This document shows positions 1 through 14,626 of a DNA stretch of 14,626 bases, one piece after another. This stretch comes from a virus (lineage: Duplodnaviria; Heunggongvirae; Uroviricota; Caudoviricetes). Every line of letters starts with the position of its first letter. The first letter of the stretch is position 1. The stretch lies in IMG/VR virus record IMGVR_UViG_3300025087_000051; one strand, given 5' to 3'. The position numbers and the translations under genes are program-made. The notes beneath the pieces were generated by a model that saw nothing but the letters and a program-made list of their open reading frames with translations, had not been told where the DNA came from and did no database searches.

Positions 1-91
1 CTCCAATAATGTTTAAGCAAAGAATAGTTGATAAGTTAAAAACAGGATCAAAGAATATTTAGTAGAAGTTGATTATTGGAGGGAATGAATA

Positions 92-3051: not shown

Positions 3052-3615
3052 ATGCTTGAAAAGTTCACAAAAAAAGAGCACAAAAAAGAATTAAGATATT
3101 TTAAGGAGTGGTATAACGAAGAAATACAATTTTATATTCTTTCTTATTTGTTGTCGAATCCTAATTATCATGCAGTGCAAAAAATTACAACACATGCACA
3201 CGACAAATGCAAAGGCAAACCATACTACGATGATTTTTGGATGGTATTATACAATACAGATTATTTAGAAATTAAGGGATCGATAGAATTGGAAACAAAG
3301 AATATACCAGACAAAGACAAAAAATATAGAATTACTTCAAAAGGCATTGATTCACTGAAAATGACTTCTGGCAATTTTATAGACTTGGTCAAACTTCTCG
3401 AAGAAAAAGAATCCAAAGAATTAACTGTTTTTAATTTTTTCGATCATTATAATATACAAAAAAATAGAAATAATACTTTTTCTATTTTTAAAAATGATGG
3501 TTCTGTGTTTTATTTAGTTCCCTACTGGCTGAATGATGTTTTTTGGAAATTGATAGAACAGGGTAAAGACGAAATTAGAGAAGAAATAAAAGATACATTA
3601 AAAATTCAACAATGA
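3052..3615 (+). CDS. Hypothetical protein with a possible winged-helix domain, 187 aa
   Basis: ILSYLL helix followed by wing-like KYRITSKGIDSL; starts 2 nt after the helicase stop. Confidence 0.75.
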   Translation: MLEKFTKKEHKKELRYFKEWYNEEIQFYILSYLLSNPNYHAVQKITTHAHDKCKGKPYYDDFWMVLYNTDYLEIKGSIELETKNIPDKDKKYRITSKGIDSLKMTSGNFIDLVKLLEEKESKELTVFNFFDHYNIQKNRNNTFSIFKNDGSVFYLVPYWLNDVFWKLIEQGKDEIREEIKDTLKIQQ

Positions 3616-3622
3616 TATTGCT

Positions 3623-3700
3623 GGCACTGTAGGGGTACATCCAGCGTAGCGGGGTAGTGCGGGAGAGGTCGGAAATCGTTTCGATCTCTCCCAATGCCTA
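3623..3700 (+). ncRNA. GC-rich structured RNA candidate (imperfect HDV-like double-pseudoknot topology)
   Basis: Non-coding GC island in AT-rich surroundings; 14-bp hairpin 3661-3692 plus pairings GCACTG/TAGTGC, TAC/GTA and TAGG/CCTA. The identity is unproven. Confidence 0.45.
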
Positions 3701-3712
3701 TTAATAAAGATT

Positions 3713-4105
3713 ATGAAAAAACATATATATATTTTATTTTTACTTATAATGGTTATAGGTTGTTTTTATTTTCTGGGAAAGGCTTTTCTATACAAAGATC
3801 GTACCGATTGTATTATTAGCGGAATATTTTCTTCTATGGGAATATGTGTAGCCTTGCTGAAAACAAATCTAAAAAATTTTACGTTTTATAAAAAAATCAA
3901 AACAAATAGAATTATTGCTGAATTTTTTAAAAATAATTATCTATCATTGACTAAAGAAGAAAAAGAATACATCACGGAAGAATGCTCCATTCCTACAGTT
4001 ACACAAGACTCTGAGGTACTTTACAAAATAATTAAAAGGCTTGGGCTTTGGTATATAAAAAACAGACTTAGTGAATTTGAAAATAAAAATCCTAAATGCA
4101 GTTAA
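3713..4105 (+). CDS. Membrane protein with two N-terminal TM helices, 130 aa
   Basis: Two hydrophobic segments at about residues 5-25 and 34-50; no SD. Confidence 0.75.
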   Translation: MKKHIYILFLLIMVIGCFYFLGKAFLYKDRTDCIISGIFSSMGICVALLKTNLKNFTFYKKIKTNRIIAEFFKNNYLSLTKEEKEYITEECSIPTVTQDSEVLYKIIKRLGLWYIKNRLSEFENKNPKCS

Positions 4106-4590
4106 TAATCTGGAAAGAACAAATAGAAGATAGGAAAGGTTTGCAGTTTGTTGGCGATATTGGTGTATATCCTAACATAATCGCTCACGATATTGGTATT
4201 AATGACAAAGATCACTTATTTTTTATATATACAGAAATTAGCGCAAACAGTTTTTCTGAATGTAGCGATTTGTTCTATTCTTTATTTGCTCAGTTTTTAG
4301 AAGATGTTGGAGAAATCACAAACAACGACTTGATTAAAACACTCAGGAGGGAAATACGTTTAAGAACAAAAATCAGATTTAAAGACTCTAAGCTTTGTGG
4401 ATACGTAGGCAGTGTTATGGTTTTTTGCTGTAATAAAAGTATTTACAATAATCGTACTTGGATATTAAGAATATTTCCAATATCTGTGGTGTCTCTATCT
4501 ATTGAAAGCGGAAAAATCAAATTGGAGGAGGTGTTGAACCATGAACTTAATATTATATTCCATGATTTGATTTGGAATTCTTTGAAATGA
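4096..4590 (+). CDS. Hypothetical protein, 164 aa
   Basis: ORF track; 10-nt overlap with the upstream gene; globular composition; no family recognised. Confidence 0.75.
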   Translation: MQLIIWKEQIEDRKGLQFVGDIGVYPNIIAHDIGINDKDHLFFIYTEISANSFSECSDLFYSLFAQFLEDVGEITNNDLIKTLRREIRLRTKIRFKDSKLCGYVGSVMVFCCNKSIYNNRTWILRIFPISVVSLSIESGKIKLEEVLNHELNIIFHDLIWNSLK

Positions 4591-4697
4591 TGACAGGACA
4601 ATCCTTGTCGAGCGAAAAAAATTTACTTGTGGGCGACAGCCCACCACAGTTGTTGTGTCCTGTACATGGTGTTGCTTGCAAATTTGTGCAAGAATAA
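4587..4697 (+). CDS. Possible 36-aa microprotein/leader peptide (MMTGQSLSSEKNLLVGDSPPQLLCPVHGVACKFVQE)
   Basis: Hand translation; ATGA overlap with the upstream stop; CPVHG..C motif; the region is also GC-rich and structured. Confidence 0.45.
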   Translation: MMTGQSLSSEKNLLVGDSPPQLLCPVHGVACKFVQE

Positions 4698-4742
4698 CTT
4701 GATTACCCCGCAAAGAAAAACCCACAGCCGTAGGATGAAATT

Positions 4743-4913
4743 ATGAAAATTGTATTTAAAAATAAAAAGCAAATTGAAATAACAGAGGAAGAGGTTCAGT
4801 TAATTGCCAAAAGAATAATTGATGGTTGTGGAAATTTCCAAGTATTTTCAGATAAAAAAAGTGGTAGAGTGATTTCGATTATAAATTTAAGTGAAGTTGT
4901 TTATATAATTTAA
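4743..4913 (+). CDS. Hypothetical protein, 56 aa (MKIVFKNKKQIEITEEEVQLIAKRII...NLSEVVYII)
   Basis: Hand translation; AGGA upstream; beta-helix-beta pattern common in small phage proteins. Confidence 0.7.
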   Translation: MKIVFKNKKQIEITEEEVQLIAKRIIDGCGNFQVFSDKKSGRVISIINLSEVVYII

Positions 4914-4926
4914 TAGGAGAAAATTT

Positions 4927-5175
4927 TTGAATAATAAAATAATAAAAATTGTAGATGAGAATAAAAACGAAATTAAGTCAGATCAAAAAATATGTCATCG
5001 GTTTCAGCCAGTAGTGATTCCATATTCTGCTCAAACTTTAGCAGGTGTTGAAACCAGAATTGATATGAAACAAATCAATTGTTATAAGGAAAAATGTGAA
5101 CTTTGGTATGCGGAAATGGGAATGTGTGCGGAAAAGTACAATTATATTAAAAACAAAGAAGGAGAGGTAATGTGA
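4927..5175 (+). CDS. Cys-motif protein A (paralog of next gene), 82 aa
   Basis: AGGAG SD, TTG start; CxRFQP...CxxxKCxxWxxExxMC. Confidence 0.8.
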   Translation: MNNKIIKIVDENKNEIKSDQKICHRFQPVVIPYSAQTLAGVETRIDMKQINCYKEKCELWYAEMGMCAEKYNYIKNKEGEVM

Positions 5176-5471
5176 CCGATACTAATAACATAGGCAACGA
5201 AAATAAAGCAGCGGAAAAGATGGTTTTAGGATTTTGTAGTAAGTTTCAACCTCAAATAGTTCCGCACGCCGTGGGGCCTGGTAAGACATTAATAAATTAT
5301 AAACCGTATTATTTTCCATGTACCGGCGACAAATGTACTGATTCTTGGTGTCACGAGCATAAGATGTGTAGACATGCTTGTGAACATTTGGAGGCGTTTC
5401 ATCCTTTAGAAGAAGGAGAAGATGAAGAATCTATAATGGAAAACGATGAAGAGGTTTTGCAAGTCCCATGA
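5172..5471 (+). CDS. Cys-motif protein B with acidic tail, 99 aa
   Basis: GTGA coupling; CxKFQP...CxxxKCxxxWxxExxMC. Confidence 0.8.
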   Translation: MTDTNNIGNENKAAEKMVLGFCSKFQPQIVPHAVGPGKTLINYKPYYFPCTGDKCTDSWCHEHKMCRHACEHLEAFHPLEEGEDEESIMENDEEVLQVP

Positions 5472-5857
5472 GACCTGGCGATACTTCTTGGCGATACATA
5501 TTGCGATGTTTAGGTGAGTTAAAAGAAGACGACTGGATAACGAGTAAGGAATTTGGCAATTTATTTTCAGTGCCAGTACGTATCGTAACTAATCATTTTA
5601 AAAAATTAAGAAAATATTCACTTATTGTTAGACAGCCAGACATAGATGCGAGAAGTGTGAGAGGTGGCAATCATTACAAATACCAATTATCTGCATCTGG
5701 CAAAAAAAAGATGGAATATTGGAAGAAATATAAAGATAGTATAGATTTTGACAGGAATAAAATAAAGTGTCCTCGCTGTGATTTCCAGATAAATATTGCA
5801 GAATTAAAATTTTTGTGCGGATTAAATATAAACGAAAAAGGAGGTGATAAATCATGA
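5468..5857 (+). CDS. Winged helix-turn-helix transcription regulator with C-terminal Zn knuckle, 129 aa
   Basis: ITSKEFGNLFSVPVRIVTNHFKKLRKYSLI helix-turn-helix, wing YKYQLSASGKK, CPRC plus a downstream Cys; ATGA coupling. Confidence 0.85.
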   Translation: MRPGDTSWRYILRCLGELKEDDWITSKEFGNLFSVPVRIVTNHFKKLRKYSLIVRQPDIDARSVRGGNHYKYQLSASGKKKMEYWKKYKDSIDFDRNKIKCPRCDFQINIAELKFLCGLNINEKGGDKS

Positions 5858-6252
5858 GTATTGATGCAAAAGATATTAAAGTCGGTGATAGATATTTGTG
5901 TGAGTTTCCAAATAGTAATTTTGTAAGTGATTATCTTGTTGTTGAAATTGTTCTTGCGAATTTACAAGATAAAAAATATGTAAAAATCGTGAATGAATGT
6001 GAAATTGGTGGCAAATGGGTGACTTTGGATACATTATCAAGTTCAATAATAGGAAAATTAGAAGATAAAGACGAATACGATTTAGGCGAAGTGTATGACG
6101 GAATATCTGTGGATGATGAAGAACAGTTGCAATTAGAACATGAAAAAAATAAAGAAAAAATGGATTATTTGCAAGAGTTTGTGGAGGTACAAACCGAATA
6201 TTTAAAGATGTTAATAGGAGAGAAAAAAAATACTGATAATTGGAAAGGATAG
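5854..6252 (+). CDS. Hypothetical protein, SH3/KOW-like N-terminus, 132 aa
   Basis: AGGAGG SD; DIKVGDRYL start typical of small beta-barrels; acidic helical C-terminus. Confidence 0.8.
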   Translation: MSIDAKDIKVGDRYLCEFPNSNFVSDYLVVEIVLANLQDKKYVKIVNECEIGGKWVTLDTLSSSIIGKLEDKDEYDLGEVYDGISVDDEEQLQLEHEKNKEKMDYLQEFVEVQTEYLKMLIGEKKNTDNWKG

Positions 6253-6255
6253 AAT

Positions 6256-6405
6256 ATGAGCATAATATCAAGTATCTGTGCAGACAATGCAAACGAAGTA
6301 AAAGCTGAATGGGCATTAAGATTGGAAGTTGCCATAAAGCATAAGAGTTGGAAAGAAGTAGAAAAAATAAAATCAGACATGGAAGAATATTTGTTTTCGG
6401 AGTAA
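6256..6405 (+). CDS. Small helical protein, 49 aa (MSIISSICADNANEVKAEWALRLEVAIKHKSWKEVEKIKSDMEEYLFSE)
   Basis: Hand translation; AAGGA upstream; exactly fills the gap between neighbours. Confidence 0.65.
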   Translation: MSIISSICADNANEVKAEWALRLEVAIKHKSWKEVEKIKSDMEEYLFSE

Positions 6406-6409
6406 TATT

Positions 6410-8038
6410 GTGAGCGAAACAGTTGATAATCAAATTAAAGGCGAGGTTGGGTTAGAAGATGTTCTCAGTTCTAAGCCGCCAGGCTCGGTCGTTAAAGTTA
6501 ATACGGATGGTACGGTTGAAATTACATCCAAAGAGGGCAAGAAGAAAAAAAGAGAAGTAGAGGCCGAACAAGAATTTGATAATATATTAAAAGCATGGTC
6601 AAAAAATGTTGAACAAGTTGCAGAAATTTGGTTCTATCAGTGTTTGCGCAGTTCTTCCTTTGGTGTTCCTCAAACATTTGTGGGGACAGAACCGTTAGAA
6701 ACTTTTTTTGATGAAGATGGTGAAGAAGTTGAAAATATGGAGCGGTGGTTGGGGCAGAGAGCAGAGGGTGGATTTGCATATACGTGTCAATTACGAATAA
6801 ATGGAAAGCCTGTACCGAAGCAACCAGAACGAAAATATTATTATAAAGAGGATGGTGAAATATTTCGAGAGTTGGGTGGTTTTTGGGGAAATAACGAAAT
6901 GGATGTGAGAGATAAGAAGGGCAAAAATAATGATACAGAAGCGATACTTAGTCATGTTGATAAAACGAATCGAATAATAATGGACATGGCAGAGAACAAG
7001 AAAGAGTCGGTTGATCCGAATGTTATTCAAAGCTTAGTTAGTGCTGTTATAGCAAAGGATACGAAAAAAGATAATAATGATGGAATAGTTCCGGCTTTAA
7101 TGTCGGGATTTACCGCAATTATTCAAGCCGTTGCGGCCAAACCAACCGAACAAAAAAATGATAATGGCCTTTTTCTCGAAATGTTTCGTTCCGTATCGGA
7201 AGGAATGAAAGAGATGGGGCGGGGTACAAATGAATCTATTAACAAAATATCCCAGATGATGCTTGATATGAATCGCATGATGTTAGAGATGCAGACGAAA
7301 AGCATGGAGATGAGAAATAACGATAAGATCGAAACGATGAAGACGATGAATGAAATGCAGGAGAAAATGTTATTATTAGTTAGGGAGATAAAAGAAAAAG
7401 GTAGCGATAATTCTGCTATTGGTGGATTAGATCATGTGAATAAATTTCTCGATCAAGCGTTGAAAACCCAAAGCTTAATGTCTGGATTTAACGCTCAGTT
7501 AATGGGTGGCATGATGAATAGTTTTAAGGATAGTGTCTCCGTAATGAAAGATTTGAAAGATTTGAGGGGCGATGGAGAATCTGAAGAAAAGGAGTCTGAA
7601 ACCGTACTTGATAAAATAATCAATAAAGCTCCTGAGTATATGGAGGCTGGCGCAAAATTTATCGGTTCGATGCGTGGTAGTAATCAATTTCCTATAAATA
7701 ATAATATTCCTGATAATGATATAAGTGAAAAGGAGAACAGTGTGGTAAACGAAAATATTCAAGACGTACCAAGAAATGATGAAATGACTGAGAAAGAATT
7801 ATTAAATGATATTATAGAAGATATTATGGGTTATCTCGAAGATAAAAAGTCACACGAAGAAATAGCGGGTGAGGTCGTTGGTTTATACAGTGGTTATAAA
7901 GATAAATTAATAAGCATATTGAATAAGAATAAAGATGAATTGATGGCAATATTGAATAAAGAAAATCTTAACAGTATTGTTAGTAATTTCGGAGTAATGA
8001 AAAGTATATTGGGGTTAATTAAGAAGAAATTAATATAA
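6410..8038 (+). CDS. Large protein with globular N-terminus, Met-rich coiled-coil middle and helical C-terminus, 542 aa
   Basis: GTG start after GGAG; long ORF; 15 Met in one 64-residue stretch; no catalytic motif recognised. Confidence 0.9.
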   Translation: MSETVDNQIKGEVGLEDVLSSKPPGSVVKVNTDGTVEITSKEGKKKKREVEAEQEFDNILKAWSKNVEQVAEIWFYQCLRSSSFGVPQTFVGTEPLETFFDEDGEEVENMERWLGQRAEGGFAYTCQLRINGKPVPKQPERKYYYKEDGEIFRELGGFWGNNEMDVRDKKGKNNDTEAILSHVDKTNRIIMDMAENKKESVDPNVIQSLVSAVIAKDTKKDNNDGIVPALMSGFTAIIQAVAAKPTEQKNDNGLFLEMFRSVSEGMKEMGRGTNESINKISQMMLDMNRMMLEMQTKSMEMRNNDKIETMKTMNEMQEKMLLLVREIKEKGSDNSAIGGLDHVNKFLDQALKTQSLMSGFNAQLMGGMMNSFKDSVSVMKDLKDLRGDGESEEKESETVLDKIINKAPEYMEAGAKFIGSMRGSNQFPINNNIPDNDISEKENSVVNENIQDVPRNDEMTEKELLNDIIEDIMGYLEDKKSHEEIAGEVVGLYSGYKDKLISILNKNKDELMAILNKENLNSIVSNFGVMKSILGLIKKKLI

Positions 8039-8048
8039 GGAGTGTTTT

Positions 8049-8315
8049 GTGAGCGACGAATTGAAACCAGTAATAGCAGTAGAGGTTGTTGGTAGTGTAG
8101 GTTTTGAAGAAATGTGTAAAGAGTATTTCGATTCTGGTTATATTATGTCTTCTTCCAATTGTTTCATTTTGCCAGAAATGATGCATTTCCAAACAAAATA
8201 TGTTGCTGTTTTTGTATTGCCTGAAGTTTTGGGAGTTGATATGGATGATTGTTTTGAATGTGATAAAGAGGATGAAGGCGATGAGTGGAAAAAAGGTAAA
8301 AAAGAAGAAAATTAA
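8049..8315 (+). CDS. Small acidic protein (loose DUF1737-like pattern), 88 aa
   Basis: AAGGAG SD, GTG start; FEEMCKEYFDSGY...YVAVFV pattern, recognised by eye only. Confidence 0.75.
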   Translation: MSDELKPVIAVEVVGSVGFEEMCKEYFDSGYIMSSSNCFILPEMMHFQTKYVAVFVLPEVLGVDMDDCFECDKEDEGDEWKKGKKEEN

Positions 8316-8409
8316 TACGAAAAAATATAGTCACGAATATGATGATGATTGTATTTGTTCAAAGTGCAGAAACAGATTCAATAAAGTTTTGTTTGGTCTA
8401 TTAAAATAA
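8281..8409 (+). CDS. Possible 42-aa basic Cys-containing microprotein (MSGKKVKKKKIN...CICSKC...LLK)
   Basis: Internal ATG of track ORF 8200..8409 with GAAGG upstream; CxCxxC. Confidence 0.4.
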   Translation: MSGKKVKKKKINTKKYSHEYDDDCICSKCRNRFNKVLFGLLK

Positions 8410-8445
8410 CTAAGGTGTGGGATTTTATATATTTTAAAATTCTTA

Positions 8446-8474
8446 TTGACAAATGACAACGAATATGATAGAGA
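8446..8474 (+). promoter_or_regulatory. Possible sigma70 promoter (perfect -35 TTGACA, weak -10)
   Basis: TTGACA 8446-8451 in an AT-rich gap, with upstream context resembling the 1334 promoter; -10 at 17 nt is TG-n-TAGAGA, lacking the final T. Confidence 0.35.
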
Positions 8475-8665
8475 ATAGCACAGATAATTTCTTATTTGAT
8501 GACGAATATAAAAAATTCGAGAAAACCTTAAAGATTTGGTATTTAAGATTTGTAAAAAACACAACAAATGTTTGCGATCCAAATACTAAAGTTTCAATAA
8601 CATTAACGGCAAATCCGGCAGGTAAATACGTAGGAAAAGAAGTTAAGCTGAATGATAATAATTAA
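8453..8665 (+). CDS. Hypothetical protein, 70 aa
   Basis: ORF track; protein-like composition, but no SD, and the start overlaps the putative promoter. Confidence 0.5.
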   Translation: MTTNMIENSTDNFLFDDEYKKFEKTLKIWYLRFVKNTTNVCDPNTKVSITLTANPAGKYVGKEVKLNDNN

Positions 8666-8716
8666 AAATAAATAATAGTTACCAGTTGTTCCGTTAACAG
8701 GGTACTCGCACGAACG

Positions 8717-8753
8717 AACCCCTGAAAGTTTGATAACTTTCAGGGGTTTTTTT
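8717..8753 (+). terminator. Rho-independent terminator ending the early block
   Basis: Perfect 14-bp stem AACCCCTGAAAGTT/AACTTTCAGGGGTT, loop TGAT, T7 tract 8747-8753. Confidence 0.9.
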
Positions 8754-8756
8754 ATT

Positions 8757-8777
8757 GTCAAAAATTGGTCAAAAATT
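8757..8777. repeat. Tandem 10-bp direct repeat GTCAAAAATT x2 (11-bp period), candidate operator
   Basis: Exact copies at 8757-8766 and 8768-8777, overlapping a possible TTGTCA-16-TAATAT promoter upstream of the right-hand operon. Confidence 0.55.
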
Positions 8778-8827
8778 AATATTAAAATCTGATTTATTCA
8801 AATTTATATGAAAAGGAGAGGTAAGGA

Positions 8828-9445
8828 ATGAAGATAGGTAAAAAAGCGAAAGAAATGTTTAAAATTTTGGGGATTATTGGACTGTCTGCTTGTTTATTCG
8901 TTGGTAATCCATGTAAGGCTGCCGATATTACCCGTGCTACAATTAATATGCAAGACCCTAACGATCCGATGCGAATTGCCGACACGGATGCTTTTTACGT
9001 AGTTGATGTGTCTACGACAGGAACGAATACTACAAATAGTCATGTCGTCAAATTAAACAACATTGATGCGGTATTGCTACAACTTTCTGTAGCAGATATA
9101 ACGGTTGGTTCGGTTAGTTTTAGTCTTGAACAATCACTCGATGGTGTTACGTATGGTTCGGTAACTGCTTCTCAGATGATAAAACTAACAGACACTCTCA
9201 CGACTAGCACTGAATTTGGTTCTGATACTGTGGTATATTTTGCTGGTGATTATTTCGGTACTCATACAGTAACTTTTGGTACTACCACTGTTTACGGTTC
9301 TACAAGCGCAACAAATATTCATAGTTTTTACGCTGTCAGAACTATGGGTGATCGTTTAAGAATTGGTTGTAACCATGTATTGACCGGTACTGATACTGGT
9401 ACTTACAAAGTTGTAATTAAGAAAAGTACAAAAGGTAAACTCTAA
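8828..9445 (+). CDS. Exported beta-rich protein (jelly-roll/spike-like), 205 aa
   Basis: AAGGAGAGG SD; signal peptide (basic n-region, hydrophobic core, CKA|AD); Thr/Val-rich beta pattern with SLEQSLDGVTY. Confidence 0.85.
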   Translation: MKIGKKAKEMFKILGIIGLSACLFVGNPCKAADITRATINMQDPNDPMRIADTDAFYVVDVSTTGTNTTNSHVVKLNNIDAVLLQLSVADITVGSVSFSLEQSLDGVTYGSVTASQMIKLTDTLTTSTEFGSDTVVYFAGDYFGTHTVTFGTTTVYGSTSATNIHSFYAVRTMGDRLRIGCNHVLTGTDTGTYKVVIKKSTKGKL

Positions 9446-9494
9446 TTAATATACTTACATACATTCCTTGATTAATTTTTGGAGATAAAACAAA

Positions 9495-10073
9495 ATGTTA
9501 AAAATCATTAGAAACAAAAATGTAAAATATATCCATACCGAAAATATTAAATATGTCATAGAAAATGCTGAGGGATATTTGGTTTGTATCTCTACGGGCA
9601 AAGAGCAGGTAAAAAAGGATGAATTTGATCTTGAAAAATCAAAATTGAAAAAGTGCGGAGATACTCATTACAACACTGATTATGTTTGCGATGTAGAAGT
9701 AGTAAAGGATCGTACCGCATTTGTCGTTTCGACCAATAATGAAACTGGCAAAAGATTTATCGCTACGGGCGATTTGAAAAATTTGATCGATGGTTTCTAC
9801 GAAGTAAATCGTAACGATGGTACTTCCGTATACATAAATCCTGACAATGTTCATGTTGTGGAGAAGCCATACATTACAGTAACGGCAAAGATAATGAATA
9901 ATGGCGTTATTACAGAAGTTCCAATCGAAGCCGGTGATCAAGTTACGAGTTGTACCGTAACGGCTGTTGGTGGCAAGAAGTTTAAATTCGATGCGCAAGA
10001 AGCGGTACAACTATTATCTTACTATAAAGAAGAAGCAGTTCCGGCTAAAAAGAAAACACCGCCTCCTGCATAA
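9495..10073 (+). CDS. Protein with three LytTR/FlbD-like repeats, 192 aa
   Basis: Repeats YIHTENIKYV / HYNTDYVCDV / YINPDNVHVV, each followed by a beta-hairpin and TGK/GGK; GGAG SD. Confidence 0.85.
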   Translation: MLKIIRNKNVKYIHTENIKYVIENAEGYLVCISTGKEQVKKDEFDLEKSKLKKCGDTHYNTDYVCDVEVVKDRTAFVVSTNNETGKRFIATGDLKNLIDGFYEVNRNDGTSVYINPDNVHVVEKPYITVTAKIMNNGVITEVPIEAGDQVTSCTVTAVGGKKFKFDAQEAVQLLSYYKEEAVPAKKKTPPPA

Positions 10074-11149
10074 TGAATAATAAGCAACTGGTCGCCAAAT
10101 TATTAGAGGAGCAAAGTTCAGGAAGCGACAGAGACAATGATGTTGTGATTGGAAAGATGAGGGCTGTGACTGGTAATTTATTCAAGCGATATAATGTACC
10201 TGAATTTGATTATCAGTCTGAACTTGAAACTTTGAGCCATGCGCTTTCAGATGAAGATAATTACATAAAGGCTAGAAATCTTGTCGGTAAGTCGGTTGAT
10301 TTTACAGATGATGATAGGGTTGACAGACCAGTAATTATCGGTGCTTTTGCTCTTGCGCTTGGAAATAATATTCGGATCGGTGGTAATATTGATAATCCTT
10401 TTATTGTTCAATATATAGAAAAGGATTTCGCCGCTAAAAGCGGTATATCAAATTTTGAAATGGTTGATGGCTTGGGGTCTTGGGTAGTTGTTGGAAAATC
10501 AAGTAGTTATTGGGATGGATATGGTGGGATAGACGTAGAAAAACAGATTAATCTTAATCGTACTTCTAACGCTAATCGAGAAGAAATACATAGCGGGTCA
10601 AAAGGCATAGAAACAACTGCTAAAAAAATGAAAAGTATTACTCAGCAGTATTTGAGTGATGATTATTTTGCAAATGATAGAAAATTGTTACACGGTTGGG
10701 CAAGAAATGTATTAAGAGAAAAGGGTGTATCGAATCGGGGAAATTACATGAAAGTGTTTGCAGACAAATTAACTGATAAAAATGTTGTACGATACATGAA
10801 AGACCCTCTTTATCTAAAACATGAAAGGATTGATAGTCGTGAATGGTTGCAAGTTCCTGGAAGAATTCTCGATTATGGCATAGGAGATTGTGACGATCTC
10901 TCATTGTGTATTGGGCTATTGGCTGGACTGTCTGGATTGGGATTAACGTATAGAGTTGCGGGGTGTGCGCCGAAAAAACCAAAGGCGTATTCACACGTTT
11001 ATGATATTATACATTACGGAAATAGTGGCGGCGTTGATGGGTTTACAGGCTCAAAAGACGTAGTGATTGATATAGTTTATCAAAAAAGAGGTGGGACTTT
11101 TGGAAAAGAACCTAAAAAGTTTAAGTTTTTCGATACAAGAGTGTTATAA
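10073..11149 (+). CDS. Transglutaminase-like cysteine protease/transglutaminase with long N-terminal extension, 358 aa
   Basis: VRYMKDP...E...P..IL...GDCDD (C273), YSHVY (H308), VIDIV (D333): C-H-D triad order of the transglutaminase-like superfamily; TAATG coupling. Confidence 0.9.
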   Translation: MNNKQLVAKLLEEQSSGSDRDNDVVIGKMRAVTGNLFKRYNVPEFDYQSELETLSHALSDEDNYIKARNLVGKSVDFTDDDRVDRPVIIGAFALALGNNIRIGGNIDNPFIVQYIEKDFAAKSGISNFEMVDGLGSWVVVGKSSSYWDGYGGIDVEKQINLNRTSNANREEIHSGSKGIETTAKKMKSITQQYLSDDYFANDRKLLHGWARNVLREKGVSNRGNYMKVFADKLTDKNVVRYMKDPLYLKHERIDSREWLQVPGRILDYGIGDCDDLSLCIGLLAGLSGLGLTYRVAGCAPKKPKAYSHVYDIIHYGNSGGVDGFTGSKDVVIDIVYQKRGGTFGKEPKKFKFFDTRVL

Positions 11150-11504: not shown

Positions 11505-12377
11505 ATGATTGGACAATTACTATCACTTGGCGCATTGGCGATTGGATTATCAGCACTTGGCAAAAAAGGAGGTGGAGGGGGTGGAGGTAGGGGTGGTAGT
11601 AGACCGTCAAGGCCTGCATCGAGACCTGCATCGAGACCATCAAGACCTGCAAGACCATCAAAATCATCCAGCAGTTCTGCTAAAAAATCTGCGGCAAGAC
11701 AGGCAAAGTCATCGGCTAAAACTGTAAAAGCTGCTAAAACAAGGGCTGTTAAGGCTGTTAAAGCTATCAAGGCTGCACAAAAGAAACAGGCAAAGAGTAC
11801 GAAGAAACAATTAAAAACTACTCTGAAACAAAGAGGTAAATTACTTAAATCAACAGTAAGACAAAGGAAAAAATTAACTACTTCATTAGATAAGGAACAA
11901 AAGAAAAGAATTAAACAGGGGTTGGTCGTTGCTAAGAAAAAGAAAAGGATTGATACTCTGAAAGAAAAGATCAAAAAGGAGAAGCCTGAGAAAGTAAAAG
12001 ATACGGCGGTAGACGAGAAGAAAGAAACGAAGGAAAAGGAAACGGAAGAAACGAAAGAATTGGAATCTGGAACGGACACAGATACGAGTACTGATACGGA
12101 TAGCGGGCAAGAAACGAGTTATGACGAAGGAACAGACTCCGGTAGCGAAGAAGAGACAAGTTATGACGAAAGGACTGATTCTGGTTCTGAATCGGAAGAT
12201 AGTGGATATGAAGAGGAAGAATCGGAAGAGACAGAAGAAGAATATGAAGATGAAAGCGAAGATGAAGACATAGACGAAGAAGAAGAGGAGGAGGAGGAGG
12301 AGGAGGAAGAAAATGAAACGGAAGAAGAGGACAATTATAACTATACGGAAGAAGGCGAAGAAGACGAAACTGTTTAA
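11505..12377 (+). CDS. Bipolar low-complexity protein: hydrophobic N-terminus, Gly run, RPS/RPA repeats, H1-like Lys/Ala region, Asp/Glu-rich tail, 290 aa
   Basis: CAGGAG SD; composition read directly from the translation. Confidence 0.9.
   Translation: MIGQLLSLGALAIGLSALGKKGGGGGGGRGGSRPSRPASRPASRPSRPARPSKSSSSSAKKSAARQAKSSAKTVKAAKTRAVKAVKAIKAAQKKQAKSTKKQLKTTLKQRGKLLKSTVRQRKKLTTSLDKEQKKRIKQGLVVAKKKKRIDTLKEKIKKEKPEKVKDTAVDEKKETKEKETEETKELESGTDTDTSTDTDSGQETSYDEGTDSGSEEETSYDERTDSGSESEDSGYEEEESEETEEEYEDESEDEDIDEEEEEEEEEEEENETEEEDNYNYTEEGEEDETV
11601..11660 (+). repeat. Coding tandem repeat RPS-RPAS-RPAS-RPS-RPA-RPS
   Basis: CCTGCATCGAGA x2 within degenerate 9/12-nt units. Confidence 0.8.
12096..12191 (+). 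repeat. Coding acidic repeat TDSG(Q/SEE)ETSYDE(G/R) x2.5
   Basis: AGTTATGACGAA occurs twice; three TDSG units. Confidence 0.75.
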
Positions 12378-12387
12378 GGAGTAGAAA

Positions 12388-13089
12388 ATGTTTGATTCGA
12401 TTCTCGGAAGTCTTTTCGGTAATAAAAAAACAGAAACGAAAAAAGCTGTATCGAGCAATGTTTTGAATCGAATCAAAAGAAGAAAATTAATCATTCAAAA
12501 ATTTAAAAATATTAATCCGAATGATAATTCAAAAAGAGCAAAAACGGCAAAGGAATTATTAAGTGTTTCGAAAACAGAGGGAGAACGAAAAGCTGCCCGC
12601 AAGTTTTATAAGGATGAAACAACACTTAGTAATCTAAAGAACAAGATTAAAAGTTCTGATTCTATAAACGAGAAATTAAGTCTGGCCAGGCAAGGAAAAA
12701 GATTAGCGACCAAACAACAAAAGGAATTTTGGGAAAATCTTATAAACAAGTTGCAGAAACGAAAACAAGCCAGAACTAGCGCAATAGAAAGTAGAAAAGA
12801 AGCATTGGTTATTACTGATACGAGTAAAGAACAAGACAAAGAAGAAGATAAAGATATGGAAATCGAAGAAAAACAGGAACAAAGCATTGAAGAAAACGAA
12901 TCAGGAGAAGATACAGACAATGATTCTGATAATGATATAGAAGAGACGGAAGAAGAAGAGGAAGAGGAAGAAGAAGAGGAAGAAATAGAAGAACAAGAAG
13001 AAGATGATAACGAAGATATGGATGGAAAAGAAGAGGAAGAACGAGACGATACTTTAGGAAATGATATAAACGATAAAGATGAAAACTAA
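12388..13089 (+). CDS. Bipolar protein: amphipathic N-terminus, basic helical region, Asp/Glu-rich tail, 233 aa
   Basis: AAGGAG SD; MFDSILGSLFG start; K/R-rich to about residue 135, then D/E-rich. Confidence 0.9.
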   Translation: MFDSILGSLFGNKKTETKKAVSSNVLNRIKRRKLIIQKFKNINPNDNSKRAKTAKELLSVSKTEGERKAARKFYKDETTLSNLKNKIKSSDSINEKLSLARQGKRLATKQQKEFWENLINKLQKRKQARTSAIESRKEALVITDTSKEQDKEEDKDMEIEEKQEQSIEENESGEDTDNDSDNDIEETEEEEEEEEEEEEIEEQEEDDNEDMDGKEEEERDDTLGNDINDKDEN

Positions 13090-13646: not shown

Positions 13647-13668
13647 TTATTTTTTAAGGAGATTTATT

Positions 13669-14626
13669 ATGCCTCAGTTAACGGTATTGAGCGGTGTTGG
13701 CTGCCCTCCGAGAAGAGGAACGATACGATTGAGAGAAAGATTGAGATCGAGATCGAAACTAAGGACAAGATCAAAAAGATTATTATTAAGATCAAAAAGA
13801 AAAAAAAGAAGAAACAGTAGACTGGGTCTTGGTTTTTTCAAGTGTGCTACAAAAAGTAGAAATGTCGATCCTTCTTCTCATCGTCATTTAAGTAAGTCTA
13901 TGATTAGTCGTCATCACAGAATCAATAGCATAATGAAACGGTTCAAGGTAAAGAAACTGAAATTTAAAGCTACTACGAAAAGAAAAAAAAGAGCAAAGAA
14001 GAGGAAAATTATTAGTCACGTAAGTTCTATTGGAAATCTTTATGGGGGTGTAATGAGTATGCGGAAACGAAGGAAGACTAAAAGGTCGAAGGGGAGAACG
14101 TTGGCACGAAGGGCTGGTGTTCGCAGAGGGAAATGTAAAAAGGTTGGAAAAAGGAGAGTTTGTAGGACTCGAAGGGGGAAAGGACATATTCGTAAAGATA
14201 CGAAAGGACGTAAACATAACTCAACTGGTAAATTTTCAATGAGAGGTATCGGGGGTGTCGGCGGGTTCGGATTAGCTAATGTTGGTGCGTTCAGGGCTGA
14301 TTCTTGCGCTCACAGAGTTTCTAGGGCTGGTTACGGTGGTTGGAGAAAGAAAAGGAGACATAGTAAAAGAAGGTCGAGAGGTCTTTTCGGATTAGGAAAT
14401 ATTGGAATATCAATGCCGAAGGTAAGCTCAATCACATCCATGCTACCATCGTTAAACATTAACAGTTTGAAGAAATACGGTGCGGTTGTTTCCGGTATGA
14501 CCACACCTTTGTTATTGCAACGCTTCCTGCCTAAGAATTTGACATTTGGCTGGAAAGGGCTTTTAACATATTTGGGTCTTGGCGGTGTAACGATAATGGT
14601 TAGCAAGAAAGTACCGTTTATGAAAT
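13669..14626 (+). CDS. Arg/Lys-rich protamine-like putative core (poly)protein, >=319 aa, 3' end outside window
   Basis: Hand-translated and absent from the track because it has no stop in the window; AAGGAG SD then ATG 13669; MPQLTVLSGVGCPPRRGTIRLRERLRSRSKLRTRSKR... open to the edge; four basic blocks, Gly/hydrophobic linkers and a hydrophobic C-terminal part. Confidence 0.9.
   Translation, partial: MPQLTVLSGVGCPPRRGTIRLRERLRSRSKLRTRSKRLLLRSKRKKRRNSRLGLGFFKCATKSRNVDPSSHRHLSKSMISRHHRINSIMKRFKVKKLKFKATTKRKKRAKKRKIISHVSSIGNLYGGVMSMRKRRKTKRSKGRTLARRAGVRRGKCKKVGKRRVCRTRRGKGHIRKDTKGRKHNSTGKFSMRGIGGVGGFGLANVGAFRADSCAHRVSRAGYGGWRKKRRHSKRRSRGLFGLGNIGISMPKVSSITSMLPSLNINSLKKYGAVVSGMTTPLLLQRFLPKNLTFGWKGLLTYLGLGGVTIMVSKKVPFMK

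Follow-up and report, generated by a model that had tools for sequence, protein, structure and literature searches.

The locus considered here raises the question of what is encoded by a long, extremely basic open frame at the 3' end of a stretch of viral DNA, and whether its product is, as a sequence-only reading had proposed, a DNA-condensing core polyprotein matured at adenovirus-protease-type glycine motifs. The whole stretch analysed, 14,626 nt long, is referred to as the window. As that reading had claimed, the frame from ATG 13669 is open up to the window edge (319 codons) and is absent from the ORF track, because it runs off the 3' end. When the contig was extended, the frame reached a stop at window-equivalent position 14979 in the parent record, adding 117 codons beyond the window edge.

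13656 to 13661, + strand: ribosome-binding site AAGGAG, 7 nt 5' of the ATG, read directly from the sequence.
13669 to 14626, + strand: the target gene, with 319 of its 436 codons in the window, ending at window-equivalent 14979 (G000:C1:32111-33421).

The flagged frame proved to be a genuine gene: it encodes 436 residues, is conserved, and belongs to an uncultured groundwater virus whose genome measures 78.5 kb. Contigs of 78.5 kb, circularly permuted and drawn from several groundwater samples, carry it in identical form, and 12-15 homologues (about 15) covered an identity range of 41-100%. The gene is under selection, as judged from its ribosome-binding site and from the many invariant residues that relatives down to 41% identity share in the basic modules. 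An exhaustive HMMER search added only P0014-P0016 to the family. P0016 is a marginal 90-aa match on a contig of 1 kb. A profile search for relatives gave nothing new beyond the known set, an IMG/VR pattern scan using the family alignment retrieved no relatives, and megablast of the window against phage records gave no match. Pfam and PHROG scans of the protein returned nothing, and neither did profile and sequence searches of the PDB. Even on a cautious reading, the target is an undescribed protein family.

Three conserved, very basic Cys/His modules with Gly/hydrophobic linkers make up the first part of the protein; after them come three hydrophobic helices, then a CxxCx5Cx5C motif, and the C-terminus is an acidic tail. 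The proposal of Arg/Lys-rich blocks almost free of acidic residues held, with 85 Lys/Arg against 4 Asp/Glu in residues 1-245 (net charge +81). The view of separable units joined by Gly-rich linkers held as well, in a genuine, conserved and extremely basic protein encoded in a viral late/structural operon.

13669 to 13701, + strand: conserved N-terminus, residues 1-11, with site 7 (LSGV.G); P2, L4, S8 and G9 invariant.
13702 to 13821, + strand: variable basic block B1, residues 12-51; mean identity 0.30, alignment gaps 34%.
13822 to 14028, + strand: basic module M1, residues 52-120; GLG, FxCxT, RHxRIN and VKKLKFK, then a basic tail.
14029 to 14052, + strand: linker with site 124 (LYGG.V); G122, N123 and G126 invariant.
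14053 to 14238, + strand: basic module M2, residues 129-190; GRTLARR, GKC..RxVC and IRKD..RKH.
14239 to 14286, + strand: linker with sites 191 (MRGI.G) and 194 (IGGV.G); motif in a stretch kept in 11 of the 12 aligned homologues.
14287 to 14379, + strand: basic module M3, residues 207-237; FRADSCAHRVxRAGYGGW, then a basic tail.
14380 to 14415, + strand: juxta-helical linker GLFGLGNIGI with site 239; G241, G243 and G246 invariant, strict motif in 6 of 12 homologues.
14458 to 14626, + strand: first part of the hydrophobic region, modelled as three helices over residues 264-346; pLDDT 80-86, extending past the window end.

The blocks had been described as protamine-like. They are not of protamine-like low complexity, because the module cores are conserved: identity was 0.74 for M1 (C59 and H82 invariant), 0.73 for M2 (C156, C165 and H183 conserved) and 0.88 for M3, the best conserved, with invariant Cys, His and hydrophobic residues among them. 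Motifs had further been expected to be conserved while the blocks drift. This was not the case, with linkers at 0.56-0.75 compared with 0.73-0.88 for the cores; in the alignment, B1 is the sole block that truly drifts and behaves as low complexity. Module order varied within the family: M3 precedes M2 in P0014, and it is the first module in P0015, from which modules are missing.

AlphaFold modelled the whole protein poorly (pLDDT 52), with the basic half disordered apart from small structured elements, namely a helix at 76-91 in M1 (pLDDT about 70) and, in M2, a helix from 124 to 148 and a hairpin of three strands from 156 to 175 (pLDDT 78-87). Residues 264-346 were modelled as three helices. 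This region, previously called membrane-like, is indeed hydrophobic, but only moderately so (Kyte-Doolittle 19-residue maxima of 1.2 and 1.75). It is the most widely retained part of the family. Outside the window follow the conserved four-Cys motif (C365, C368 and C380 invariant) and an acidic tail of 50 residues. A VIA search with the model returned generic helical or membrane chains alone (Z <7, treated as noise), and all Atlas structure rows had a TM <0.25 by query.

Five strict matches to [MLI]xGG.x / [MLI]xGx.G were counted, at residues 7, 124, 191, 194 and 239, exactly as first noted. LGLG at 52-55, which had been named as a further delimiter, is not a strict consensus match, in agreement with what that reading had implied. 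Shuffling the whole protein supported an excess of sites, though a modest one (5 observed, 1.83 expected, P=0.03). Residues 1-245 alone, a region picked post hoc, gave 0.85 expected and P=0.0008, and shuffles preserving local composition gave P=0.017-0.056. Among 82 ORFs in 52 kb of the genome, the target was the sole one with P<0.05; its strict-site density was 1.15 per 100 aa, compared with about 0.15 in other ORFs. The long + strand ORFs of the window contained three other strict matches, where two had been reported for the window.

Of 12 homologues, 11 retain a motif in the 191/194 region, 10 have site 124, eight have site 7 and six have site 239. The forms found at 191/194 were IGGFG, MGGFG, LRGIG and LRGVG; P0011 has LAGQG instead, slightly downstream, and the target copy carries a 3-residue insertion in this linker. 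Site 124 switches type to LLGVG in distant homologues and is missing from two (P0008 and P0009), and site 239 is lost in six. Site 7 is lost in distant homologues, its strict motif being restricted to those of at least 62% identity plus P0014. Invariant glycines are present in every linker. Two other uses of the N-terminal motif were considered and rejected: a lipoprotein signal (LSGVGC), since there is no hydrophobic h-region and the Cys is missing in distant homologues, and a bacteriocin-type double-glycine leader, since P2 is not Gly, Ala or Ser.

These motifs are the basis for reading the target as a core polyprotein. A virus-coded cysteine protease would cut it at [LIM]xGG.x / [LIM]xGx.G linkers, following the adenovirus protease (AVP) consensus reviewed in PMC4246237, into short basic DNA-condensing peptides and a membrane-anchored remnant. 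The excess of strict sites, unique among the 82 ORFs and confined to the basic half, speaks for such cleavage, as do the clustering of invariant glycines in the linkers and the location of four of the five sites in segments with pLDDT <50. The permuted modules of P0014, with [LIM]xGxG at each junction as read by eye, and the deleted modules of P0015 are also in its favour. The incomplete retention of strict sites in the family argues against it, as do linkers no better conserved than module cores, and a loose consensus whose enrichment is borderline at fixed local composition (P up to 0.056).

Cleavage would further call for an enzyme. No Pfam family of the adenain/Ulp1-like (clan CE) type was found on the called genes of the 78.5-kb genome, nor in scans of about 45 proteins, from which a very divergent one could escape. 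Besides a metzincin-like protein, the same scans detected nothing but a transglutaminase-like enzyme. This enzyme lies in the co-directional operon, downstream of a terminator, in which the target also sits and whose gene order is conserved in relatives.

8716 to 8749, + strand: strong terminator-like hairpin, preceding the late operon that starts at 8828.
10073 to 11149, + strand: transglutaminase-like (papain-fold) Cys-His-Asp protein of 358 aa, sharing the operon with the target and lying upstream of it; sole candidate for a protease.
11505 to 13089, + strand: two charge-bipolar proteins of 290 aa and 233 aa (basic half, acidic tail), neither with a strict motif.

Atlas features of the transglutaminase-like protein scored 0.94 to Transglut_core clusters; a direct Pfam match was not obtained. 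The only match in a PDB search was judged to be due to chance. Its triad (C273, H308, D333) is retained in the 41%-identical orthologue of L009, and its positional counterpart in L017, a second, distant 79-kb virus, carries PF01841. The conservation of this enzyme in the same gene module, even in a distant virus lineage, favours the polyprotein. The candidate is, however, from another clan, so the adenovirus consensus is not transferable to it, and it may equally be a cell-wall peptidase; papain-fold lysins occur in other DJR phages (gene maps, PMC5894146). Also against maturation at these sites, the charged neighbours of 290, 233 and 304 aa contain zero strict motifs. L017 has the same module order and encodes two proteins in which a basic N-terminal arm leads into a hydrophobic domain resembling that of the target; these possible distant counterparts have plain basic arms, and the Gly-delimited modules are missing from them.

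The charge-bipolar design common to the two neighbours resembles the logic of a chaperone or scaffold. It would suit a protein that stays outside the virion and either assists assembly, as chaperone or scaffold, or takes part in host takeover by binding the nucleoid, with tail and basic half acting on other proteins or on host DNA. We consider such a role very unlikely, given the position of the gene in a late operon with conserved order, next to capsid-type genes, and the hydrophobic anchor region as the part most widely kept in the family.

The kind of virus was judged mainly from a 260-aa protein encoded two genes downstream of the target, which was modelled as a double jelly roll (DJR; pLDDT 87, pTM 0.84). 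In VIA it matched the major capsid protein of STIV (Z 11.9, 220 residues, 3.9 A), PRD1 P3 (9.9), PM2 P2 (9.2) and FLiP (8.0), and cellular DUF2961-type DJR enzymes matched equally well (Z 12.2 and 11.6). Its trimer prediction reached an ipSAE of 0.91 (best control 0.00), with contacts agreeing by at least 95% between runs and a partner pLDDT of at least 89; the ipSAE mark, reached by 20 of 30 one-chain pairs and 1 of 23 single chains, is only a rough guide here (own alignment, three copies), and the pass may be due to solved DJR trimers that the predictor had memorised. In the Atlas, the nearest clusters carry the label Uroviricota. No terminase, portal or HK97-fold capsid protein was present on the full 78.5-kb gene map or in Pfam/PHROG scans of every large ORF of unassigned function, and the genome encodes one Gly_rich_2 fibre-like protein. 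No Pfam type of the FtsK/HerA packaging ATPases appeared on the gene map, and Walker A motifs, in the roughly 71 kb scanned, were confined to two unlikely sites plus the genes of an SbcC-like ATPase and an XPD-like helicase. Some DJR virus groups (Odin group, FLiP) are without a packaging ATPase (PMC5894146). Among the proteins analysed, none was identified as an SJR penton; the 304-aa protein was tried as a jelly-roll penton and rejected, the comparison of its globular part with the DJR family profile being non-significant. With a DJR capsid-type protein and no terminase, portal or packaging ATPase, the virus is probably a large non-tailed one, which makes the adenovirus analogy apt. Its host appears to be bacterial.

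This capsid context also favours the polyprotein, as eukaryotic DJR-type viruses mature core precursors at Gly-Gly-type sites. Taking all evidence together, cutting into short peptides by a protease acting at adenovirus-like glycine sites is weakly supported, and we regard a core polyprotein of this kind as unlikely.

Most likely, the target is a very basic, modular protein that would bind DNA and be anchored inside the particle. More specifically, we tentatively favour, at a little under an even chance, a structural, genome-associated, anchored core protein of a large non-tailed DJR-capsid virus. It would work as a single chain, with the Gly motifs as linkers. In the N-terminal half, the variable basic arm, followed by three basic Cys/His modules on flexible Gly/hydrophobic linkers, would bind packaged dsDNA and help to neutralise or tether it. 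The central three-helix region could serve as the anchor, fixing the protein either to the membrane inside the virion or to the inner side of the shell. The acidic tail and the four-Cys knuckle may shield the basic half until assembly, or they may interact with basic arms on structural proteins encoded nearby. In the family, modules are reordered or dropped while the anchor region stays, as would be expected of binding units arranged like beads on a string. Further points in favour are the charge and the invariant residues of the basic modules, the AlphaFold model, the place of the gene in an operon of conserved order, the DJR capsid-type gene nearby, the gene map lacking terminase, portal, HK97 capsid and packaging ATPase and, in L017, the same module order with its two similarly built proteins.

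Several points stand against an anchored core protein. The moderate hydrophobicity of the helices leaves membrane insertion uncertain, and the reading gives no specific role to the motif excess or to the placement of motifs at module junctions. The DUF2961-type matches, the Uroviricota-labelled clusters and the lack of an identified SJR penton or packaging ATPase in the genome also count against it. For packaged phage DNA, the general view is that neutralisation comes from ions and polyamines and not from basic proteins (PMC3281028).

The combination of a cationic half with hydrophobic helices would also suit a membrane-active protein for entry and DNA delivery or for lysis. The polycation would bind either the DNA end or the host envelope, which is anionic, and the helices would enter the host membrane during delivery, as in PRD1-like internal-membrane proteins. 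Its neighbours in the structural module include genes for small membrane proteins and for proteins predicted to be exported or spike-like, and DJR phages typically have delivery proteins that remodel membranes (PRD1_DD, PMC5894146). Against this, Pfam, PHROG and PDB searches detected no similarity to known delivery or lysis proteins, a 3D-domain lysin is separately encoded elsewhere in the genome, and the conserved Cys/His modules and the charge of +81 far exceed the needs of envelope binding. We therefore consider an entry or lysis function improbable.

The lineage marked by the target is undescribed and unusually large; its groundwater viruses are probably non-tailed. A bacterial virus would indicate a different mode of DNA packing among prokaryotic viruses if it combined a DJR capsid-type protein with several structural proteins of extreme basicity, of which one is modular and anchored, and had no detectable packaging ATPase. 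Such a virus would also bear on the origin of adenovirus-like and giant-virus cores. To our knowledge, protease-matured basic cores occur solely in eukaryotic DJR-capsid viruses. A bolder proposal, which we see as a long shot, is that DJR bacterial viruses of ~79 kb without a packaging motor condense their genome by membrane-anchored polycationic proteins, the target being matured at phi-x-G-x-G linkers by the papain-fold enzyme of the module; their cores would then be the prokaryotic equivalent, or the forerunner, of adenovirus/ASFV-like protease-matured cores.

Adenovirus pVII and pX (mu) are, like the target, extremely basic proteins of a DJR-capsid virus; they are genome-associated, a role that we infer for the target. 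Matches to the AVP consensus (IVGL.G, MRGG; PMC4246237) are found in the disordered linkers of the target. In contrast to pVII and pX, with which it shares no sequence similarity, the target has conserved Cys/His modules, a hydrophobic anchor, a Cys knuckle and an acidic tail, its host appears to be bacterial, its cleavage is hypothetical and no adenain was found in its genome. African swine fever virus (ASFV), whose particle combines an internal membrane with a DJR capsid, makes the multi-module structural polyproteins pp220 and pp62, precursors that its protease pS273R cleaves at GG.x. They are not polycationic and form the core shell, without binding DNA, and their protease is SUMO-protease-like. 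The multi-module design with Gly-type junctions is common to both systems, whereas no SUMO-protease-like enzyme was seen in the genome of the target.

Virus-coded basic proteins that neutralise packaged dsDNA include A278L, A282L and others of chlorovirus PBCV-1, which act inside the internal membrane, and baculovirus P6.9 (PMC3281028). These come from eukaryotic viruses, and no homology to the target was detected; P6.9 is a small, Arg-rich, low-complexity peptide, whereas the target is modular, conserved and probably anchored. Prokaryotic DJR viruses (PRD1, PM2, Bam35, STIV, the Odin group and FLiP) have genomes that are several-fold smaller. We know of no member of these groups with a +81 polycationic protein or a charge-bipolar protein set, and their internal-membrane proteins have no sequence similarity to the target. 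The Odin group and FLiP share with its genome the lack of a recognisable packaging ATPase (PMC5894146). All of these viruses likewise combine a DJR capsid-type gene with several small hydrophobic proteins.

The frame from ATG 13669 (+) was open up to the window edge for 319 codons, as the sequence-only reading had described, and it was absent from the ORF track for the sole reason that it runs off the 3' end. Within a viral record of 37,024 bases, the window spans positions 18443-33068; the stop codon was reached in that record, giving a protein of 436 residues. AAGGAG lies 7 nt upstream of the ATG. Circularly permuted ~78.5-kb contigs in several groundwater metagenomes carry an identical copy of the gene, which puts the virus genome at ~78.5 kb, circular or terminally redundant. 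Three combined searches yielded ~15 homologue clusters (41-100% identity), all metagenomic and all unnamed. No relative was found in Pfam, PHROGs or PDB, and the family is undescribed.

Residues 1-245 hold 85 Lys/Arg versus 4 Asp/Glu. The remaining features of the protein are:

Residues 264-346: three helices predicted by AlphaFold2 (pLDDT 80-86)
C-terminal of the helices, past the window edge: a conserved CxxCx5Cx5C motif
Past the window edge: an acidic tail of 50 residues with DYDDVDG repeats

In the basic half, the AlphaFold2 model (14 sequences, mean pLDDT 52) had one helix in module M1 (residues 52-120), and a helix plus a three-strand hairpin in module M2 (129-190, pLDDT 78-87). Outside these elements and the three helices, the protein was disordered.

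Glycine motifs had been expected to be conserved while the basic blocks drift, and the homologues did not follow this pattern: mean identity to the query was 0.73-0.88 in the module cores versus 0.56-0.75 in the linkers. Only block 12-51 was variable (identity 0.30, gaps 34%); the acidic tail was at 0.41. Invariant motifs occurred inside the blocks (VKKLKFK, RHxRIN, GRTLA, GKC..RxVC, IRKD..RKH and FRADSCAHRVxRAGYGGW), together with several conserved Cys and His. Judging from the alignment, the basic blocks are thus not drifting low complexity. The conserved Cys/His are scattered over the modules (C59, H82, C156, C165, H183, C213, H215), and they and the CxxCx5Cx5C motif may be metal sites; M3 (207-237) holds just a CxH pair, and is found also without M1 and M2.

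Local alignments of the query modules revealed the order M1-M3-M2 in one homologue (P0014), while another (P0015) started at M3 and lacked M1 and M2. P0014 had seven strict motif matches, and [LIM]xGxG was present at each rearranged junction, as read by eye in the sequence. From this permutation and loss, the basic half reads as separable units strung on a recurring glycine/hydrophobic linker. Such modularity fits a beads-on-a-string binding protein and a polyprotein alike, and does not discriminate between them.

As claimed, [MLI]xGG.x or [MLI]xGx.G is strictly matched at five places, residues 7, 124, 191, 194 and 239; LGLG (52-55) is not a strict match. Composition-matched shuffling of the whole protein gave 1.83 expected matches (P 0.03), and 0.85 for residues 1-245, a region picked after the fact (P 0.0008). 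Shuffles preserving local composition (windows of 15-50 residues) gave 1.64-2.15 (P 0.017-0.056). Elsewhere in the window, the other long ORFs had three strict matches, not two as first counted. Among 82 ORFs (15.8 thousand residues, 52 kb of genome) with 28 strict matches, only this protein had an excess at P<0.05. The predicted excess over shuffled sequence therefore held, but it is modest and the consensus is loose.

These sites are the basis for reading the protein as a polyprotein cut at the Gly motifs into basic core peptides, which we consider improbable. It draws on the modest enrichment, the module shuffling, the glycines invariant in every linker, and the disorder of the linkers, with pLDDT below 50 at four of the five sites. 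However, the strict motif was only partly conserved among 12 aligned homologues: in 8 at site 7, in 10 at site 124 (LYGG switching to LLGVG), in 11 at 191/194 (as IGGFG, MGGFG, LRGIG or LRGVG) and in 6 at site 239. The conserved module cores and the lack of strict sites in the neighbouring basic proteins also count against it.

The gene belongs to a co-directional operon, which runs from an exported beta-rich protein through proteins of 192 and 358 aa, then two charge-bipolar proteins and two small ones, to the modular protein. Features of this locus and its downstream continuation in other records of the same genome are:

8716-8749: strong terminator-like hairpin, after which the operon starts
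10073-11149 (+): 358-aa protein
11505-13089: two charge-bipolar proteins, each with a basic half and then a long Glu/Asp tail
L003:1622-2536, the next gene, beyond the window end: 304-aa protein whose N-terminus is acidic, followed by a Lys/Arg (basic) arm and a beta-rich body
L012:4349-5131 (G000:C1:34658-35443), ~1.6 kb past the window end: 260-aa protein with two jelly rolls in its AlphaFold model

One of the charge-bipolar proteins starts with a hydrophobic segment at its N-terminus and also contains a Gly run and SRP/ASRP repeats, and the coding strand in this stretch shows strong purine skew (AT skew up to 0.48). Upstream, at 6410-8038, a helical-looking 542-aa acidic protein with Met-rich stretches (MMLDMNRMMLEMQ...) had no family match, and a relative's locus encodes a 500-aa counterpart at the same position; it could be scaffold or tape-measure-like. 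Window positions 1-62 are the end of a 289-aa protein (G000:C1:17635-18504) with an RNA_ligase domain (PF09414, E = 2.9e-9).

The 358-aa protein had no Pfam match. Its Atlas feature neighbours were Transglut_core clusters (score 0.94), Cys273/His308/Asp333 were kept in a 41%-identical orthologue, and PF01841 is present in the protein at the corresponding position of a distant virus; together these point to a transglutaminase-like papain fold. A conserved enzyme of this putative fold in the same gene module would suit a polyprotein, but adenovirus specificity is not transferable to it, and it may simply be a cell-wall peptidase. A second candidate virus-coded protease lies outside the structural operon: a 496-aa protein (L014:1633-3123) whose metzincin zinc-binding motif, HELLHNFGLDHE, is perfect and whose Pfam matches are only weak and reprolysin-type.

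The model of the 260-aa protein was confident (pLDDT 87, pTM 0.84), and an exhaustive VIA search grouped it with double-jelly-roll (DJR) proteins: DUF2961-type enzymes (Z 12.2 and 11.6), STIV MCP (Z 11.9; 220 residues aligned, 3.9 A), PRD1 P3 (Z 9.9), PM2 P2 (Z 9.2; 207/269 residues), PBCV-1 (Z 8.9) and FLiP (Z 8.0). Its three-copy complex prediction passed (score 0.91 versus 0.00 for the best control; contact agreement at least 95%, partner pLDDT at least 89), at a mark that, in calibration, 20/30 proteins solved as same-chain pairs and 1/23 solved as single chains had reached, counts that apply only roughly here. This pass may reflect likeness to DJR trimers already solved rather than independent evidence. 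Close structural relatives were unnamed Atlas clusters (583 and 58 members).

A walk through the 78.5-kb genome found no large terminase, portal, HK97 capsid, prohead protease, FtsK/HerA ATPase or adenain, the last a further point against the polyprotein. Walker A motifs (scan of ~71 of 78.5 kb) were confined to an SbcC-like ATPase, an XPD-like helicase and two unlikely sites. According to Yutin et al. 2018 (PMC5894146), a packaging ATPase is likewise lacking in FLiP and in one group of prokaryotic DJR viruses. The DJR protein and the missing terminase, portal and packaging ATPase suggest an unusually large non-tailed lineage, and the virus is probably a large one with a DJR capsid. This is context rather than proof, since cellular DJR enzymes match equally well and the Atlas neighbours carry automatic Uroviricota labels. 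The host is probably bacterial, as the genome encodes a 3D-domain lysin. Gly-type core maturation is known in the DJR capsid lineage (adenovirus protease consensus, PMC4246237), which speaks for the polyprotein.

A separate contig of ~79 kb (L017) encodes a homologue 31% identical to the 260-aa protein, and its positions 3055-10870 repeat the order of parts:

First: a Transglut_core protein, then two very basic proteins
Next: a pair of paralogues in which a short basic N-arm precedes a hydrophobic domain, with DYLTVGN repeats
Next: a homologue of the body of the 304-aa protein (E = 3e-11)
Last: three consecutive ~300-aa proteins, including the DJR homologue, with a similar terminal FxGIA strand

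The last three may be DJR paralogues. The homologue of the 304-aa protein (7323-7976) has no charged arm; compared by profile with the DJR family, the 304-aa protein itself gave no significant match, and its position directly upstream of the DJR gene is conserved. The two paralogues showed weak resemblance to the modular protein in the region of its juxta-helical linker and first helix (BLASTP E = 0.006; hhalign probability 52%, E = 1.5e-4). Gly-delimited modules are lacking in their basic arms, and the strict matches they contain sit elsewhere, again at odds with a polyprotein. On this comparison, what is widely shared is a basic arm joined to a hydrophobic anchor in the neighbourhood of capsid genes, rather than blocks set apart by cleavage motifs.

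We tentatively favour, at somewhat under an even chance, a structural, genome-associated protein. The modular polycationic half would bind packaged DNA in the virion, the helical hydrophobic region would anchor the protein to an internal membrane or shell, and the Cys knuckle and acidic tail could serve in masking or contact neighbouring basic arms. A role in entry/delivery or lysis is unlikely, and a non-virion chaperone or takeover protein very unlikely. DNA-neutralising basic proteins of the virion are known from eukaryotic viruses, whereas in phages they are considered unimportant (PMC3281028).
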